Shown here one piece after another: positions 36,666 through 54,359 of a DNA stretch of 64,000 nt (its first letter is position 1; every line of letters begins with the position of its first letter). Location: assembly GCA_963796275.1 (NCBI GenBank), contig CAWCKY010000007.1, positions 224,001 to 288,000 of the forward strand, given 5' to 3'. Source of the stretch: an uncultured Acidobacteriota bacterium. GTDB taxonomy: Bacteria > Acidobacteriota > Blastocatellia > RBC074. The notes under the pieces were generated by a model. It was given only the letters and a program-made list of their open reading frames with translations, did no database searches and was not told the origin of the DNA. The position numbers and the translations under genes are program-made.

Positions 36666-37130
36666 TTAGTCTTCGATGAAATCGAAAACATATTTGTCCT
36701 CAAAGGCGATATCGAACTTCCTCAACAATCCCAGGTATTCGCCTTTGAATGAGCTCTTGCCGTGATGCTCCTCTTGATTTCGAAGGTAGCGGATCACATT
36801 CCCCAATTGTGAATGTGAGTATGAGAATGCACCGAACCCTTCCTGCCAATGGAATCTGCCTTTCACCCAACGCCGCTCATTGATGAACTTCGAGGAGCTG
36901 GCTTTAACATCCCGTACCATATCTGACAGAGCGATATTCGGTTTCATACCGATCAACACGTGCAGATGATCGGGCATTCCGTTAATCGCAATCAGCTTCT
37001 GACCCTTATTGCGAATAATGCCGGTGATATATTGGTATAGCTCTTCTTTATAGTTAGGCTTGATCAGATTTTGCCACCCCTGCATGGCAAAGACCACTTG
37101 AATGTAGATTTGTGTGTACGTGTCAGCCAT
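36666..37130 (-). mobile_element. tnpA: IS200/IS605-family Y1 HUH transposase, RAYT-like (no tnpB)
   Basis: YTQIYIQVVF, PDHLH (HUH), FHWQEGFGAFS, RYLRNQEEHH. Confidence 0.9.
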
Positions 37131-37255: not shown

Positions 37256-37616
37256 CTCCGCCGGAGCTTGGGGAAGGGGGCAGATTTGAACTATATACAT
37301 CTGGCCCCTCTGGGGCTAAAGATTATAAGTCGATCAGCGAATTCGGCGACCGGTTAATGGTGACTCAGTTCCTTTCCGATTGGATAGCGCGCCGCTGTGT
37401 TTTTATTACCGCTGTCCCGGAAAATTGCGACCCTGTCCTCCGGGGCTTTGGAAAGGGGTTCAGGTTTGAACTATATACATCTGGCCCCTCTGGGGCTAAA
37501 AGATTATAAGTCGATCAGCGAATTCGGCGACCGGTTAATGGTGACTCAGTCCCTGTCCGATTGTATAGTGCGTCGCTGTGTTTTTATTACCGCTGTCCCG
37601 GAAAATTGCGACCCTG
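37256..37616. repeat. Imperfect tandem duplication (period about 180 bp) of a REP half plus the 3' end of the TPR gene
   Basis: 37285-37435 matches 37465-37616 with five substitutions and one indel. Confidence 0.9.
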
Positions 37617-49189: not shown

Positions 49190-50242
49190 GTGTGGCGACC
49201 CACGTGGCGATTGATTATGGACAGTTACAGGTGGGATTTAATTGGTAGGGAGCGTGGTCAAGCCCTGCCGGTTCTGCTCGCGGGAGTTCCCGAACAGGTG
49301 ACCAATATTTTTCAGCCGTATTCAACGCCGGGTGAGTTGATCTATCAACTCTCGCTGCTGACGTTGGCTATCTGTGGGACCATATTTCTGATAGTTGCCG
49401 GCATATTGTTCTATACCATCATCCGTTTCAGAAAGCGGCCGAATGACGAGCAGAGTGAGCCTCCGCAGATCTATGGGAGCAACCAGATAGAACTGGCCTG
49501 GACCGTTCTTCCGATTCTGATCGTCTCCGTGCTGTTTCTGGTGACCGCGCGGACGATCGGTGACGTGCAGAACGCCGTACACCCCCCGGATTCGCTCAAG
49601 GTAAATGTGGTCGGCCACCAATGGTGGTGGGAGATACGCTATCCCGATCTGGGGATCGTGACGGCGAACGAACTACACGTGCCGGTCAGCGATTCAGAGC
49701 GGCCGCGGCGAACTGTTCTGAAGTTGCAGTCGGCCGATGTCGCACATAGTTTCTGGGTTCCCCAGCTCGGCGGGAAGACTGACCTGATTCCAAACCGCGA
49801 CAACTATATGTGGTTCGATCCCAGGGAGACGGGAGTCTATCGGGGTAACTGCGCAGAGTATTGCGGCACTCAGCACGCGCACATGCTCATTCGCGTGATC
49901 GTCCATCGACAAGACGAGTTCGACCGATGGGTGGCCGAACAGCAGAAGCCGGCGGTTGAAGACGCACAGGTAGCGACAGGACGGAAAGTTTTCCTCTCGA
50001 CCTCGTGCGTCAACTGCCACACGATCCGCGGAACGACCGCCAGTGGGATGTTCGGCCCCGACCTGACTCATCTGATGAGCCGGGAGACGCTGGGTTCCGG
50101 TGCGATTAAGAATACGCCCGAATTGTTGCGGGATTGGGTGAGCGATCCGCAAAAGATGAAAGAGGGTTGTTTGATGCCCGATATGCAGCTTTCACAGCAG
50201 GAGCTGGATCAAATCGTGGCCTATCTCATGATGTTGAAATAG
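49190..50242 (+). CDS. coxB: Cytochrome c oxidase subunit II, caa3 type (CuA + cytochrome c); start may be 49217
   Basis: ELAWT, GHQWWW, DVAHSFWVP, CAEYCGTQHAHM, CVNCH. Confidence 0.95.
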   Translation: MWRPTWRLIMDSYRWDLIGRERGQALPVLLAGVPEQVTNIFQPYSTPGELIYQLSLLTLAICGTIFLIVAGILFYTIIRFRKRPNDEQSEPPQIYGSNQIELAWTVLPILIVSVLFLVTARTIGDVQNAVHPPDSLKVNVVGHQWWWEIRYPDLGIVTANELHVPVSDSERPRRTVLKLQSADVAHSFWVPQLGGKTDLIPNRDNYMWFDPRETGVYRGNCAEYCGTQHAHMLIRVIVHRQDEFDRWVAEQQKPAVEDAQVATGRKVFLSTSCVNCHTIRGTTASGMFGPDLTHLMSRETLGSGAIKNTPELLRDWVSDPQKMKEGCLMPDMQLSQQELDQIVAYLMMLK

Positions 50243-50339: not shown

Positions 50340-52016
50340 ATGGCCACAAAAGCGATTGCGTTAGAGGGTGCGCCGGGAGCCCGTCTTCCCATCACGACTC
50401 GGCTAAACGATCTGGTTTTCACGGTAGACCACAAGAAGCTCGGCCTGATGTATATCGCTTCGGCACTGTTCTTCTTTGCGGTGGCGGGCTCGATGGCCGC
50501 AGTCATGCGATTGCAACTTGTCGTTCCGAATAACGACCTCGTCTCCCCACAAGTCTTCAATCGTTTCTTCACGATGCACGGGACCGCAATGGTCTTCCTG
50601 GTCGGCATGCCGATTCTGGCCGGGTTAGGGAACTATCTGGTGCCGCTGATGATTGGGGCGCGCGATATGGCCTTTCCCAGACTCAACGCCTTTGGCTTCT
50701 GGATGTTCTTCTTCGGCGGGCTGATGCTCTATTTCAGCTATCTCGCGGCGCCCGGACTGACGGGCATCGGCTCGGCTCCGGACGTCGGCTGGTTCGCCTA
50801 TGCGCCGTTGACCGCCCGTGCCTTCTCCCCCGGGCAGAGCACCGACTTCTGGATTTTGAGCATTATGCTTGGCGGCGTCGGGAGCATCGTCACAGCGATC
50901 AATCTCATCGCGACTATTGTCAGTATGCGATGCAAGGGAATGACGCTCATGCATATGCCGCTGCTCGTCTGGATGATGCTGATCGTGGCGGGAATGATCC
51001 TGCTCGCCATGCCTCCGCTGTCGGCGGCGCAAATCATGCTCTTGCTCGACCGGTATCTCGGAGCGATGTTCTTCGACACCCAGTCTGGCGGATCGGCGGT
51101 GTTGTGGCAGCACTTCTTCTGGATCTTCGGTCACCCTGAAGTCTACATATTGATTATCCCGGGTTTCGCCTGTATCTCGGAGATCATTCCCGTCTTTTCC
51201 CGCAAGCCGATCTTCGGATACCCGTTTATGGTGGCTGCAGTTGTCATGCTCGGCTTCATAAGTCTGGGCGTCTGGGCGCATCACATGTTCACAGTAGGGA
51301 TGAGTTCGATTGGCAACACCTTCTTCGCTATCACGACGATGCTGGTGGCAGTTCCCACGGGTATCAAAATCTTCAATTGGCTGGGAACGATGTATGGAGG
51401 CAAGATTCGCTTTGAACCCCCGATGCTCTTTTGCATTGGGTTCCTCTTTCAGTTTCTCATCGCGGGACTGACTGGCGTTATGCTGGCAGCAGCCCCGTTC
51501 GATTGGCAGTTGAGCGACTCCACCTTCGTGGTGGCCCACTTCCACTTTGTGCTGATCGGCGGCCTCCTCTATGCAGTTTTTGCAGGAATCTATTACTGGT
51601 ATCCGAAAGCCATCGGCAGAATGCTCAACAAGAAGCTGGGTCTCTGGCATTTCTGGCTCTTCACCATCGGGTTCCATCTCACCTTCGACACCATGCACCT
51701 CCCGGGACTTCTGGGAATGCCGCGACGAATTTATACCTACGATGACGGGCGAGGGTGGGAGATCTTCAACCAGATTTCGACGATCGGAGTTGCCTTTCAG
51801 GGCGCGGCTGTCCTCTGTTTCGTTATCAACCTGATCCGGTCCGCGCGGAATGGCGAGGAAGCGGGTGATGATCCCTGGGATGCTTGGACGCTCGAATGGT
51901 CCACGACTTCACCACCTCCACCGTATAACTTCGAAGTTTTGCCGAAAGTGAGGAGCACGCGCCCGTTATGGGACCTTAAGCATCCGGAAGATCCGGACTG
52001 GCGATACGAAGGCTAA
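50340..52016 (+). CDS. coxA: Cytochrome c oxidase subunit I, A1 type
   Basis: TMHG, DMAFPRLN, FGHPEVY, WAHHM, TGIK, VAHFH, GMPRR. Confidence 0.97.
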   Translation: MATKAIALEGAPGARLPITTRLNDLVFTVDHKKLGLMYIASALFFFAVAGSMAAVMRLQLVVPNNDLVSPQVFNRFFTMHGTAMVFLVGMPILAGLGNYLVPLMIGARDMAFPRLNAFGFWMFFFGGLMLYFSYLAAPGLTGIGSAPDVGWFAYAPLTARAFSPGQSTDFWILSIMLGGVGSIVTAINLIATIVSMRCKGMTLMHMPLLVWMMLIVAGMILLAMPPLSAAQIMLLLDRYLGAMFFDTQSGGSAVLWQHFFWIFGHPEVYILIIPGFACISEIIPVFSRKPIFGYPFMVAAVVMLGFISLGVWAHHMFTVGMSSIGNTFFAITTMLVAVPTGIKIFNWLGTMYGGKIRFEPPMLFCIGFLFQFLIAGLTGVMLAAAPFDWQLSDSTFVVAHFHFVLIGGLLYAVFAGIYYWYPKAIGRMLNKKLGLWHFWLFTIGFHLTFDTMHLPGLLGMPRRIYTYDDGRGWEIFNQISTIGVAFQGAAVLCFVINLIRSARNGEEAGDDPWDAWTLEWSTTSPPPPYNFEVLPKVRSTRPLWDLKHPEDPDWRYEG

Positions 52017-52039: not shown

Positions 52040-52639
52040 ATGACTGGTGGCGATGCGTTGTCTTTAGGAATTGAATCCACCGAGTGGAAACTGCCGTCAC
52101 GGCGCAAGACCGCTCTGCTCATGTTAATCCTGACGGAGACCACTCTCTTCTCGATTTTCATCGCCGCATATGTCTATTACATAGGCAAGAGTTTAACAGG
52201 ACCCTATCCGAAAGACGTACTGGAATTGCCGGTCATCGCCACGATTTGTTTGCTTTCGAGCAGCGTGACGGTCGTCCTTGCCGAACGCGCCTTCGCGCGG
52301 AATAACAGTTCCGGTTTCAGGTTGTGGTGGTTAATCACTATTGTCCTGGCTCTGATTTTCCTTTCTTCGACTGCAAGGGAATGGTATGGGCTGATCACAA
52401 AACATGGGCTGACGATCAGCACCAATCTGTTCGGAACTACCTATTACGCGTTGGTTGGTTTACACGCGTCTCACGTGATCATTGGTCTGATCCTCCTCGT
52501 TTTGGTTATGTTACTGAGTTTGCGCGGCTATGTGAGGCAAAGAAACGCCGAACATCTGCAGATGATCTCCTGGTACTGGCATTTTGTGGATGCAGTCTGG
52601 GTCGTTGTCTTCACGTTGGTATACGTAATAGGGCGTTAA
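52040..52639 (+). CDS. coxC: Heme-copper oxidase subunit III (short type)
   Basis: TICLLSSS, GLHASHV, YWHFVDAVW. Confidence 0.93.
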   Translation: MTGGDALSLGIESTEWKLPSRRKTALLMLILTETTLFSIFIAAYVYYIGKSLTGPYPKDVLELPVIATICLLSSSVTVVLAERAFARNNSSGFRLWWLITIVLALIFLSSTAREWYGLITKHGLTISTNLFGTTYYALVGLHASHVIIGLILLVLVMLLSLRGYVRQRNAEHLQMISWYWHFVDAVWVVVFTLVYVIGR

Positions 52640-52643
52640 AAAT

Positions 52644-53043
52644 AGTTTTAAGTTTTAAGTTTTAAGTTTGCTGATGCAAATTACAGTATTTCCGAAAACC
52701 ACAAACTAAAACTGAAAACTCAAAAACTGAAGAACTAGAACTAAGAACTAAGAACTAAAAACTAAAAACTAAAAGTGACCGCTCAACCTCTTCGCCGCGT
52801 TAGCGGCGGATGATTGTAGCCGTGGGTTTTAACCCACGGAAGGCTTGAAGGAAATTCCCGCGTCGCGTTAGCGACGCCTGAATTCAACCGTCGCTGACGC
52901 GACGTGAAAAAATCTACCGCCACCGTGGGTTAAAACCCACGGCTACAATCAACCGCCGCTAACGCGGCGAAGAGGCTGAGCAGTTAATTTCAGTTTTTAG
53001 TTTTAGCTGAGCTGTCTCGATCAGCAACTAAAAACCAAAAACT
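52644..53043. repeat. REPIN-like long inverted repeat (CCGTGGGTT..AACCCACGG cores) inside heptamer arrays
   Basis: 52781-52839 is a near-perfect reverse complement of 52923-52981; inner GTCGCGTTAGCGACG palindromes; flanking AAAACTA/TAGTTTT units. Confidence 0.9.
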
Positions 53044-53602
53044 ATATATGTTATCCGATAAGAATAAAGAACAAGTTCCTGCCGCCATCGAGATGCCGGC
53101 GCCAACCTACTGGCCGCTGGTCCTGGCATTCGGGATCACGTTGTTATCAACCGCCACCGTGGGCGGCTACAATCAACCGCCGCTAACGCGGCGAAGAGGC
53201 TGAGCAGTTAATTTCAGTTTTTAGTTTTAGCTGAGCTGTCTCGATCAGCAACTAAAAACCAAAAACTATATATGTTATCCGATAAGAATAAAGAACAAGT
53301 TCCTGCCGCCATCGAGATGCCGGCGCCAACCTACTGGCCGCTGGTCCTGGCATTCGGGATCACGTTGTTATCAACCGCCACCGTGGGCGGCTACAATCAA
53401 CGCCGCTAACGCGGCGAAGAGGCTGAGCAGTTAATTTCAGTTTTTAGTTTTAGCTGAGCTGTCTCGATCAGCAACTTAAAACTTAAAACTTAAAACTATA
53501 TATGTTATCCGATAAGAATAAAGAGCAAGTTCCTGCAGCCATTGAAATGCCGGCGCCGACCTACTGGCCGCTCGTCCTGGCCTTCGGGATAACGTTGTTA
53601 TC
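52916..53602 (+). repeat. Three tandem units (224-234 bp) of REP arm + heptamers + first 34 codons of the 53502 gene
   Basis: ATG TTA TCC GAT AAG at 53048, 53272 and 53502. Confidence 0.95.
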
Positions 53603-54359
53603 GGCCGGGCTGGTCACCCACATTGCCGTCAGCGCGATCGGGTTGCTGCTTACGCTGCGGGCTGCGGTTGGTTGGTTCAAGGATATCTTTCCGGTTGAGA
53701 AGCATGAGCCGGTCCCTGTGGTTCCGGAGTCCCAGCGTGCCGAGCCCATAAAAACCTCTTCGCGTTCGGTGGCTCGACTGCAGGCAGGTGTGGCAAATCA
53801 TCGAGTGCGCATCCCGGCGACGTTCCATCCATATTCGACCGGGATCAGAGGAGGTCTCGCAGGCGGGGTTGCGATGGCCATAGTCGCCTGTCTTTATGGA
53901 CTCATCGCGCACGGCAGCATCTGGTATCCGGTCAACCTGCTTGCCGCAGTCGCGCTGCCCTCGCTGGCTAAGGCAGATTTGGAGCAGTTGAAGGCTTTCA
54001 ATGGTATGGCCTTCATCCTCGCCATACTCTGCCACGCGGCGATCTCAAGCCTTGTGGGATTACTCTTTGCCGTCCTGCTTCCGATGTTGCCCTCGCGCCG
54101 CGCTGCTTTCTGGGGGAGTTTTTTCAGCCCAATTCTATGGTCGGCTCTGGTCGGGGCGACCCTCAACTTGATCAATCCTGTACTGAATGCGCGCATTGAT
54201 TGGGTCTGGTTTGTTGCCTCGCAGATCGCTTTTGGAATGGTCACAGGCTACATCGTTCACCACTCGAAGATGGTCGAGACGATGCAAACGTGGCCGCTGG
54301 CTGCGAGGGCCGGGCTGGAGACTCGAGGCGATGTCCATGGGAATAAAGGAGAGGAATGA
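53502..54359 (+). CDS. Multi-pass membrane protein, N-terminus resembling oxidase subunit IV/CoxA tail
   Basis: MPAPTYWPLVLAFG; about six TM helices; inside the cox-qcr operon. Confidence 0.8.
   Translation: MLSDKNKEQVPAAIEMPAPTYWPLVLAFGITLLSAGLVTHIAVSAIGLLLTLRAAVGWFKDIFPVEKHEPVPVVPESQRAEPIKTSSRSVARLQAGVANHRVRIPATFHPYSTGIRGGLAGGVAMAIVACLYGLIAHGSIWYPVNLLAAVALPSLAKADLEQLKAFNGMAFILAILCHAAISSLVGLLFAVLLPMLPSRRAAFWGSFFSPILWSALVGATLNLINPVLNARIDWVWFVASQIAFGMVTGYIVHHSKMVETMQTWPLAARAGLETRGDVHGNKGEE

Follow-up and report, generated by a model that had tools for sequence, protein, structure and literature searches.

Gene context of the array

The stretch of DNA analysed here, called the window, comprises 64,000 nt (positions 224001-288000 of contig C7 of genome G000). 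The genome spans 9.46 Mb in 7 contigs and is 94.7% complete with 5.2% contamination. The window carries a cox operon in the order COX2, COX1, COX3, a long intergenic region, a gene for a 285-aa protein, cytochrome c, Rieske, an overlapping ORF and CtaG; judging from its position only, we take the overlapping ORF after Rieske to be cytochrome b. The genes next to the intergenic region are given below, in window coordinates, as are all positions cited without a contig.

49190-50242: COX2, upstream of coxIII
50340-52016: COX1, upstream of coxIII
52040-52639, plus strand: cytochrome c oxidase subunit III gene (coxIII, COX3), the upstream neighbour; Pfam PF00510, E 6e-20
53502-54359, plus strand: intact gene of the cox/bc operon for the 285-aa membrane protein, no candidate function assigned; its start is kept in relatives

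A gap of 862 nt separates the COX3 stop (52639) from the 285-aa gene. The 285-aa protein has 2986 homologous proteins at E<=1e-40; its Pfam matches are all weak and below the cut-off (DUF6789, 22 bits; Cyt_c_ox_IV, 17.6 bits), and searches of PDB and NCBIfam gave no match. Among 10 related loci inspected, coxIII lies upstream in 8, at 14-113 nt before the ATG and usually with a GGAGG, and a different gene lies upstream in the other 2. No Shine-Dalgarno sequence precedes the 285-aa gene here, in contrast to the GGAGG of the relatives. The hairpin of the element described below was absent from all 10 of these loci, and the palindromic element at the junction between coxIII and the 285-aa gene appears to be lineage-specific. 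In the closest relative for which DNA is available (82% aa identity), the same junction holds another palindromic insert of ~113 nt with AAATAAACGAAA-type repeats (L014:430-542); insertion at this site has therefore happened more than once.

The operon recurs in part on contig C2 (746593-749663 and 656434-658045), where cytochrome c and Rieske accompany a fragment of coxIII and a 64% paralogue of the 285-aa gene. Several genes of this copy, as well as a COX1 gene, are broken across different frames, and these frame-split genes are either pseudogenes or the result of assembly indel errors.

The repeat element and its family

The intergenic region holds an element of roughly 400 nt, delimited by the depth of repeat matches along the region and composed of two inverted arms with two hairpins each, an 83-nt centre, and arrays of AAAACTR-type heptamers on both sides. 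Its left part and centre, and the start of its right arm, are as follows.

52642-52668, unstranded: left outer heptamer array (AGTTTTA x3.7, TRF), the left end of the element
52695-52775, plus strand: inner left heptamer array (AAAACTA-type; TRF period 7, 11.4 copies)
52776-52839, minus strand: left arm with two hairpins, CGCCGCGTTAGCGGCG and CCGTGGGTTTTAACCCACGG; part of an 82-nt inverted repeat with 52923-53004, 93% complementary
52840-52922, unstranded: element centre with two small hairpins; 48 HSPs in the genome, of which 31 are near full length, the focal one included
52923-52942, plus strand: hairpin CCGTGGGTTAAAACCCACGG in its intact form, opening the right arm

The two arms (82 nt, 93% complementary, 83 nt apart) can pair into a long hairpin of the REPIN type, and folded as DNA the element forms one long hairpin of -131.5 kcal/mol (z -21). 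The first 129 nt of the feature belong to a dispersed family, with at least 100 matches listed in the genome, and 30 full right arms occur among 140 HSPs. Arm complementarity at the focal copy, 60/64, is among the highest of the 31 copies and gives no hint of a foreign left half of the element.

A candidate source of this family lies on contig C4 (611677-612021, minus strand), where a gene encodes a Y1 transposase of 150 aa (PF01797, 95.6 bits) whose translation carries an HLH and a C-terminal Y..Q..HH, as in HUH enzymes. The protein scores 74 bits with NCBIfam transpos_IS200 against a cut-off of 55, and falls outside the RAYT family proper (REP_Tyr_transpos, 17.5 bits against a cut-off of 80). 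The gene is flanked by 4 and 3 copies of the two hairpins found in the element centre, and also by tandem arm arrays (180 nt x3.3 and 148 nt x7). Because centre hairpins and arm arrays also flank this gene, the repeat is a REPIN-like derivative, without the gene, of a Y1 transposase unit of IS200 type. What the sequence-only reading, made before this analysis, had called a REP is better described as one arm of such a derivative.

Both arms match the full 46-position model of Rfam RF01687 at 28.6 and 28.2 bits (E 2e-4; the left-arm match at 52793-52839, minus strand), and neither reaches its gathering score of 37. RF01687 has been described as the Acido-Lenti-1 RNA motif (Weinberg et al. 2010, PMC2864571). 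The arms share with it the two-hairpin layout, loop and linker letters, and the phylum; they differ in that their scores of 28 bits fall short of the gathering score, in that the sequence is here the arm of a mobile repeat and no stand-alone RNA gene, and in that units 2 and 3 of the array described below, which have lost 10 nt of the hairpin, do not match. Of 36 genomes from the same family (a tally including G004), 24 have related arms at 73-80% identity; G002, a genome of the same genus, gives a weak match, and none was found in G001 (87% complete).

Several further features of the family and of its company were observed. The genome has nine Y1_Tnp matches, several of which adjoin tandem arrays; a second Y1_Tnp gene within the window (36774-37118, minus strand, 81.8 bits) adjoins a 181-nt x2 tandem array (37257-37616) of another palindromic repeat. 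The arm's second hairpin (CGCCGCTAACGCGGCG plus linker) is itself repeated in tandem with a 24-nt period at C6:687454-687548, and further 24-nt-period hairpin arrays lie at C3:949237, C4:1081096 and C6:380761. The AAAACTR-type heptamer arrays at element ends frequently adjoin start codons, here at 53473-53501 and at other loci too; the heptamer type varies between loci and tends to agree at both ends of one element. Finally, the family's hairpin GTGGGTTxxAACCCAC is interrupted by a 1382-bp IS encoding a 429-aa DDE_Tnp_1 transposase (27.4 bits, cut-off 23), at L109:766-2148, which equals C6:639865-641247, with ten further pairs of ends in the genome. The IS is present in 11 complete copies (23 end matches, that is 11 pairs 1382 bp apart and one single end), and is a repeat-targeting IS; ISPpu9 of Pseudomonas putida is described as repeat-targeting too (PMC8450116).

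A tandem array that includes the start of a gene

To the right of the centre, the element continues into three head-to-tail units (TRF: period 224, 2.9 copies, score 1186), each with a right arm, heptamers and the first 34 codons of the 285-aa gene.

52940-53163, plus strand: unit 1, right arm (52940-53025), heptamers AACTAAAAACCAAAAACTAT, 34 gene codons (copy allele) and joint ACCGCCACCGTGGG; from repeat search, TRF and alignment
53164-53387, plus strand: unit 2, same as unit 1 (100% over 224 nt)
53388-53603, plus strand: unit 3, composed of an arm lacking 1 nt, the heptamer AACTTAA three times, and the intact gene's own codons 1-34 (gene allele)
53146-53170, plus strand: joint 1, where codon 34 (TCA) meets the element's ACCGCCACCGTGGG, followed by CGGCTAC with the hairpin loop deleted
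53370-53394, plus strand: joint 2, sequence as joint 1
53048-53203, plus strand: 51-aa ORF, 34 N-terminal residues of the gene product (one hydrophobic helix) and a 17-residue tail from the repeat
53272-53409, plus strand: 45-aa ORF, the same 34 residues with a shorter tail

The triplicated gene start reported in the sequence-only reading is thus present as described, with ATGs at 53048, 53272 and 53502 and two copies identical to each other, and the 51-aa ORF that it had pointed out exists. The alignment also bore out the loss of 10 bp of the hairpin from units 2 and 3: TTAAAACCCA, which belongs to hairpin CCGTGGGTTAAAACCCACGG and lies before unit 1 (52930-52939), is missing from both. It is the 1-nt deletion of the unit 3 arm that shortens the tail of the 45-aa ORF.

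Over codons 1-34, the copies differ from the gene at nine codons (8, 12, 14, 15, 19, 24, 27, 30 and 34), and all nine differences are third-position and synonymous, at the sites listed in the sequence-only reading. Past codon 34 the homology with the gene stops and the copies run into repeat sequence. The 86-nt arm of unit 2 differs from that of unit 3 by no substitution and one 1-nt deletion. Just before the ATG, the copies have the heptamers AACTAAA AACCAAA, against three AACTTAA in the gene unit, which amounts to three substitutions and one heptamer difference. The left outer heptamers of the element (52642-52668) are complementary at 27/27 positions to the heptamers of unit 3 (53473-53499), and have no complementarity to those of units 1 and 2.

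The 34 codons contain 23.8 synonymous sites, giving a pS of 0.38 and a dS of ~0.53. The probability that nine of nine random substitutions are synonymous is 2e-6 to 2e-5, and a chance origin of the pattern is excluded. If the gene is allowed silent changes only and the copies drift neutrally, the probability of no non-synonymous change among nine is still 2e-4 to 8e-4, and neutral decay of a dead copy formed in situ is rejected, as the sequence-only reading had argued. Diversity-generating retroelement style mutagenesis was ruled out, the changes not being adenine-specific, and so were silent cassettes for antigenic-type variation, the copies encoding identical residues. The idea of a recoding that limits recombination between the repeats, put forward in the same reading, found no support.

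At the joints (53144-53173 and 53368-53397), the 10-nt hairpin loss places TTATCA 18 nt before TACAAT, a sigma-70-like pair (9/12) directed toward the next unit. Scans for promoters and terminators gave counts not above those of shuffled sequences (2 versus 1.4 and 5 versus 1.7).

How the array may have been built

The joints carry the trace of a short-homology event. The gene (..ATCAGCCG.., copy allele) and the element (..ATCTACCG..) have the patch ATCNNCCG in common at this point; the parental sequences read ..TTATCA/GCCGGG in the gene and ..AAATCT/ACCGCC in the element, and the product reads ATCAACCGCC, as in joining at short homology. This product needs TCA, the copy allele, at codon 34 and not TCG; therefore the duplicated gene bore the copy allele at the time of joining.

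A sequence of steps may then be proposed. A REPIN-like element lies between coxIII and the 285-aa gene, with its end 4 nt before the ATG. A microhomology join may have linked codon 34/35 to the sequence directly 5' of the right-arm hairpin, which would duplicate the right arm, the heptamers and 34 codons, and slippage or unequal exchange between the identical arms would have added the third unit. Unit 2 has its joint and deleted hairpin as in unit 3 and is in everything else as unit 1, a composition that is expected from slippage or unequal exchange in a two-unit array. Since no substitution separates the three arms from one another, the duplication steps are young.

Tandem arraying is a habit of this repeat family. 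We screened 39 arrays (period >=100, >=85% matches) against long ORFs and examined two others that include a gene end. Arrays consisting of arms only are found at C7:609831-610717 (153 nt x5.8, stopping just before an ATG) and at C3:263661-264022 (126 nt x2.9); their unit border lies within the hairpin and comes with a 10-11-nt duplication, where the focal array has a 10-nt loss instead. At C6:639144-639869, a gene for a sigma-54-type response regulator has its last 54 codons repeated together with a left arm (x3, 244-nt period); the extra copies show ordinary decay, in the form of 3 synonymous changes and 2 that are non-synonymous, namely a stop and a Pro-to-Leu. At C3:1303197-1303469, ~25 codons of a gene end are included and, read off the sequence by eye, there are 2 differences, one of them apparently non-synonymous. 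Both arrays behave as expected of in-situ duplicates, and the focal array is the outlier. The array at C6:639144-639869 serves as an internal control that backs the rejection of neutral decay for the focal copies. The last hairpin of the array at C6:639144-639869 is the one that carries the 1382-bp IS.

Probably two alleles side by side

The substitutions are unevenly spread over the repeated unit, with 0/86 in the arm and 9/102 in the coding part (Fisher p = 0.004). None of the 27 other full-length right arms in the genome is identical to the focal one; most show 3-6 differences, and even the closest has 1 mismatch. As the focal arms are identical and the 27 others are not, the three focal arms are recent copies of each other. 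The array is a mosaic, in which a young duplication with one allele stands beside a gene with another, and a young duplication adjoining an old divergence implies a recombination breakpoint at the arm/heptamer border. Nine silent differences with no replacement have the look of two functional versions of the gene from different lineages, and the synonymous-only pattern is best explained by two alleles standing side by side. One side of the array would then have been exchanged by homologous recombination with its breakpoint at that border; that this exchange took place, with a relative ~9% diverged, has in our judgement about an even chance of being right. It is also the account to which the sequence-only reading came nearest with its allele from a relative anchored at the REP; the foreign allele would have been added beside the gene or exchanged, and not simply have replaced it.

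The same reading had suggested that orthologues could tell which version is ancestral. Polarisation used the two closest relatives (L014 and G002) out of 59 loci with an N-terminal match, the other 57 having <=67% identity over the first 60 residues and saturated silent sites. Taken as the outgroup, these two relatives agree with the copy at codons 15, 24, 27 and 30 and with the gene at codon 19; at codon 14, one of them agrees with the gene. Measured against them, both alleles have derived states. In a soil contig ~85% alike, the copy states are found at 53546, 53573 and 53591, and contigs of one soil run fall on the copy version, from which they depart by 3 and 9 letters; Logan contigs of four runs from other samples cover mainly the repeat arms.

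Two directions of exchange are possible. The array may have formed in one lineage and been imported before the resident gene via the conserved arms, which needs either a crossover at the arm's extreme right edge or arms that were the same in both lineages. The 27/27 agreement of the left outer heptamers with unit 3 favours this course, with a resident gene allele and an imported array. Alternatively, the 5' part of the gene may have been overwritten after the duplication, and the copies would be fossils of the earlier allele; this course is less demanding of the crossover, but the match of the heptamers then takes an event of its own.

A number of points weigh against such an exchange. No amino-acid change at a dS of ~0.5 is slightly fewer than expected. 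The closest candidate donors are distant: no donor with the full-length second allele was found in metagenome contigs (76 loci, best 82% aa), in species genomes (9 loci, best 79% aa) or in the protein collection, where the best match, at 89% aa, is too distant. This 89% relative differs at 6/34 N-terminal residues, the N-terminus being the less conserved part, and among sixty relatives searched one genome has the gene besides the window's own. The paralogue on contig C2 (64-65% aa) was rejected as the source of the allele, being too divergent. No read or independent assembly with both alleles on one molecule was found among the sequencing runs, none of which had half of the sampled words (the best had 13%); no RNA run is listed. 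Both alleles would have to lie on one molecule for the exchange to hold.

This last point leads to the assembly, since the same letters could come from a consensus of two strains in the sample. Strain A would carry a young three-unit array with the copy allele throughout, and a commoner strain B would carry the gene allele and no array; the array structure would have been kept in the assembly and polished to the letters of strain B wherever these gave coverage, so that the 448 extra bases keep the letters of strain A. Such a mixture explains without any extra assumption why the extra units alone differ, as well as the 27/27 agreement of the left outer heptamers with unit 3 and the identity of units 1 and 2. 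It also fits with a genome that is a metagenome-type bin (with the contig number, completeness and contamination given above) and whose relatives are MAGs, with the splitting of some genes elsewhere over several frames, and with the position of the 1-nt deletion of the unit 3 arm in a CC run. On the other hand, the joint must still exist in some molecule, and the pattern is seen in the focal array alone among the arrays with gene ends. Strains 9% apart would, moreover, not normally end up merged in a single contig; hence the contrast between 0/86 and 9/102 would still call for a local import in one of them. Comparisons of contig ends and of contig C5 settled the question of strain mixing in the bin neither way. 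We consider a strain-mixed consensus unlikely, and still probable enough to be weighed seriously. Altogether, the pattern speaks for recombination across lineages, or else for an assembly of mixed strains, and not for a new mechanism.

Selection on the copies themselves is a further explanation. The duplication could be old and have arisen in situ, with the 51- and 45-aa ORFs translated and under purifying selection, and with units 1 and 2 as the result of a recent re-duplication. The start context of the ORFs is the same as that of the gene, all 9 differences are synonymous, and derived states occur on both sides, all of which would agree with a translated micro-protein. Yet the arms are identical even though neutral sites are ~38% different, and the arms alone would need homogenising. 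In a large collection, where small ORFs are often uncalled, no protein of 28-90 aa has three 5-residue words in common with the ORFs; the 51-aa ORF belongs to no Pfam family, the tails of the two ORFs are unlike each other, and the element is absent at this site in 10/10 of the relatives' loci inspected. The micro-protein offered as an option in the sequence-only reading has accordingly gained little support from the protein search, and the identical arms oppose an old duplication; we see little chance that it is the explanation.

The chance is smaller still for a young duplication in situ after which the expressed gene alone changed, adaptively and quickly, at synonymous sites, for instance so as to open the mRNA around a start codon which lost its Shine-Dalgarno sequence when the element landed. 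In its favour, relatives have GGAGG before the ATG and the gene here has none, and the gene is derived at 4 of 5-6 polarised sites. With the same upstream context, the gene version is also less stable over -30..+102 (MFE -23.8 versus -27.9 kcal/mol; ensemble energy -27.55 versus -31.57), the MFEs in the own contexts being -23.8 for the gene and -30.9 for the copy. However, folding of all 512 allele mixtures lent no support to an opening of the start site: 52 of the 512 fold as weakly as the gene or weaker, and in start-proximal windows the gene is not the weaker version (10/16 mixtures over -30..+45; the most structured of 4 over -20..+40). The changes are, besides, evenly spread up to codon 34 and have no common base direction. 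We know of no precedent for ~8 adaptive silent changes before any decay of a copy.

Perhaps the arms do more than provide homology. If they were portable landing pads, the resident IS200-type Y1 transposase would cut incoming ssDNA at the hairpin and paste it into the resident hairpin; we see only a slim chance of this. The incoming piece would have to be the relative's arm together with its heptamers and gene start, for which the chance is likewise slim, and it is just as doubtful that the repeat family captures gene starts in this way and carries them across lineages. Touching on this idea, the borders of the units lie inside the hairpin, with 10 nt lost here and 10-11 nt duplicated elsewhere.

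Comparison with known systems

In Pseudomonas fluorescens SBW25, REPINs have been reported to form tandem clusters of near-identical units that include flanking sequence, with clusters beside a Y1 transposase gene (Bertels and Rainey 2011, PMC3116915). The focal family resembles the REPINs of that report in its two inverted palindromic repeats that form a long hairpin, in its dispersed and extragenic distribution, and in its tandem clusters with flanks, some of them at a Y1 transposase gene. It differs by its longer arms (two hairpins plus heptamer arrays, ~400 nt in all), by a transposase that scores as IS200/IS605 TnpA and not as RAYT, and by a duplicated flank that is here the coding start of a gene with a second allele.

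The 150-aa Y1 HUH transposase and the hairpins flanking its gene are as in IS200/IS605. Elements of that group have asymmetric ends, whereas the ends of the focal element are symmetric, long and tandemly repeated, and in this more REP/REPIN-like.

REP sequences were reportedly found by Shyamala et al. in 1990 as join-points of tandem duplications in enterobacteria. The focal joints are similar in lying in or beside extragenic palindromes and in using less than full-length homology; those duplications span many kilobases, whereas the focal one measures 224-234 nt. In E. coli, REP sequences have been described at some amplification junctions, a minority of them, where the homology was less than full (PMC1428787).

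Homology-facilitated illegitimate recombination offers another parallel, as do the arrays of orphan genes that arise from sequential displacement and leave relic genes behind, as far as these are set out in the two reports concerned (PMC3240628, PMC5361080). Common to those cases, as described there, and to ours are a foreign allele beside a resident one, a conserved anchor with a short-homology joint, and a truncated relic. The focal relic differs in being a 5' fragment upstream of an intact gene, with no donor identified, and the focal joint may equally be a tandem duplication in cis. In a limited search of main texts on REPIN/RAYT tandems, REP join-points, Acido-Lenti-1 and illegitimate recombination, the combination of a duplicated coding start with a second allele was not found.

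Implications

The feature is real in the sequence and ordinary in kind; the only unusual thing about it is that the duplicated flank is a coding start that preserves a second allele. Whichever of the two accounts of that allele is right, an exchange between lineages or a mixture of strains, the understanding of these repeats and of the cox operon is unchanged. Should the differences be an assembly artefact, the locus would be a compact case of a strain mixture that shows up in the repeats of a long-read bin as 'ghost' differences resembling alleles, a point of importance for anyone inferring selection from such data. The locus shows how a REPIN-like repeat can duplicate the coding start of the adjoining gene, and a young duplicate of this kind can keep a second allele, by which one locus would record an exchange between lineages ~9% apart. 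If the mosaic is real, the conserved arms would be candidate anchors for exchange between diverged soil acidobacteria.
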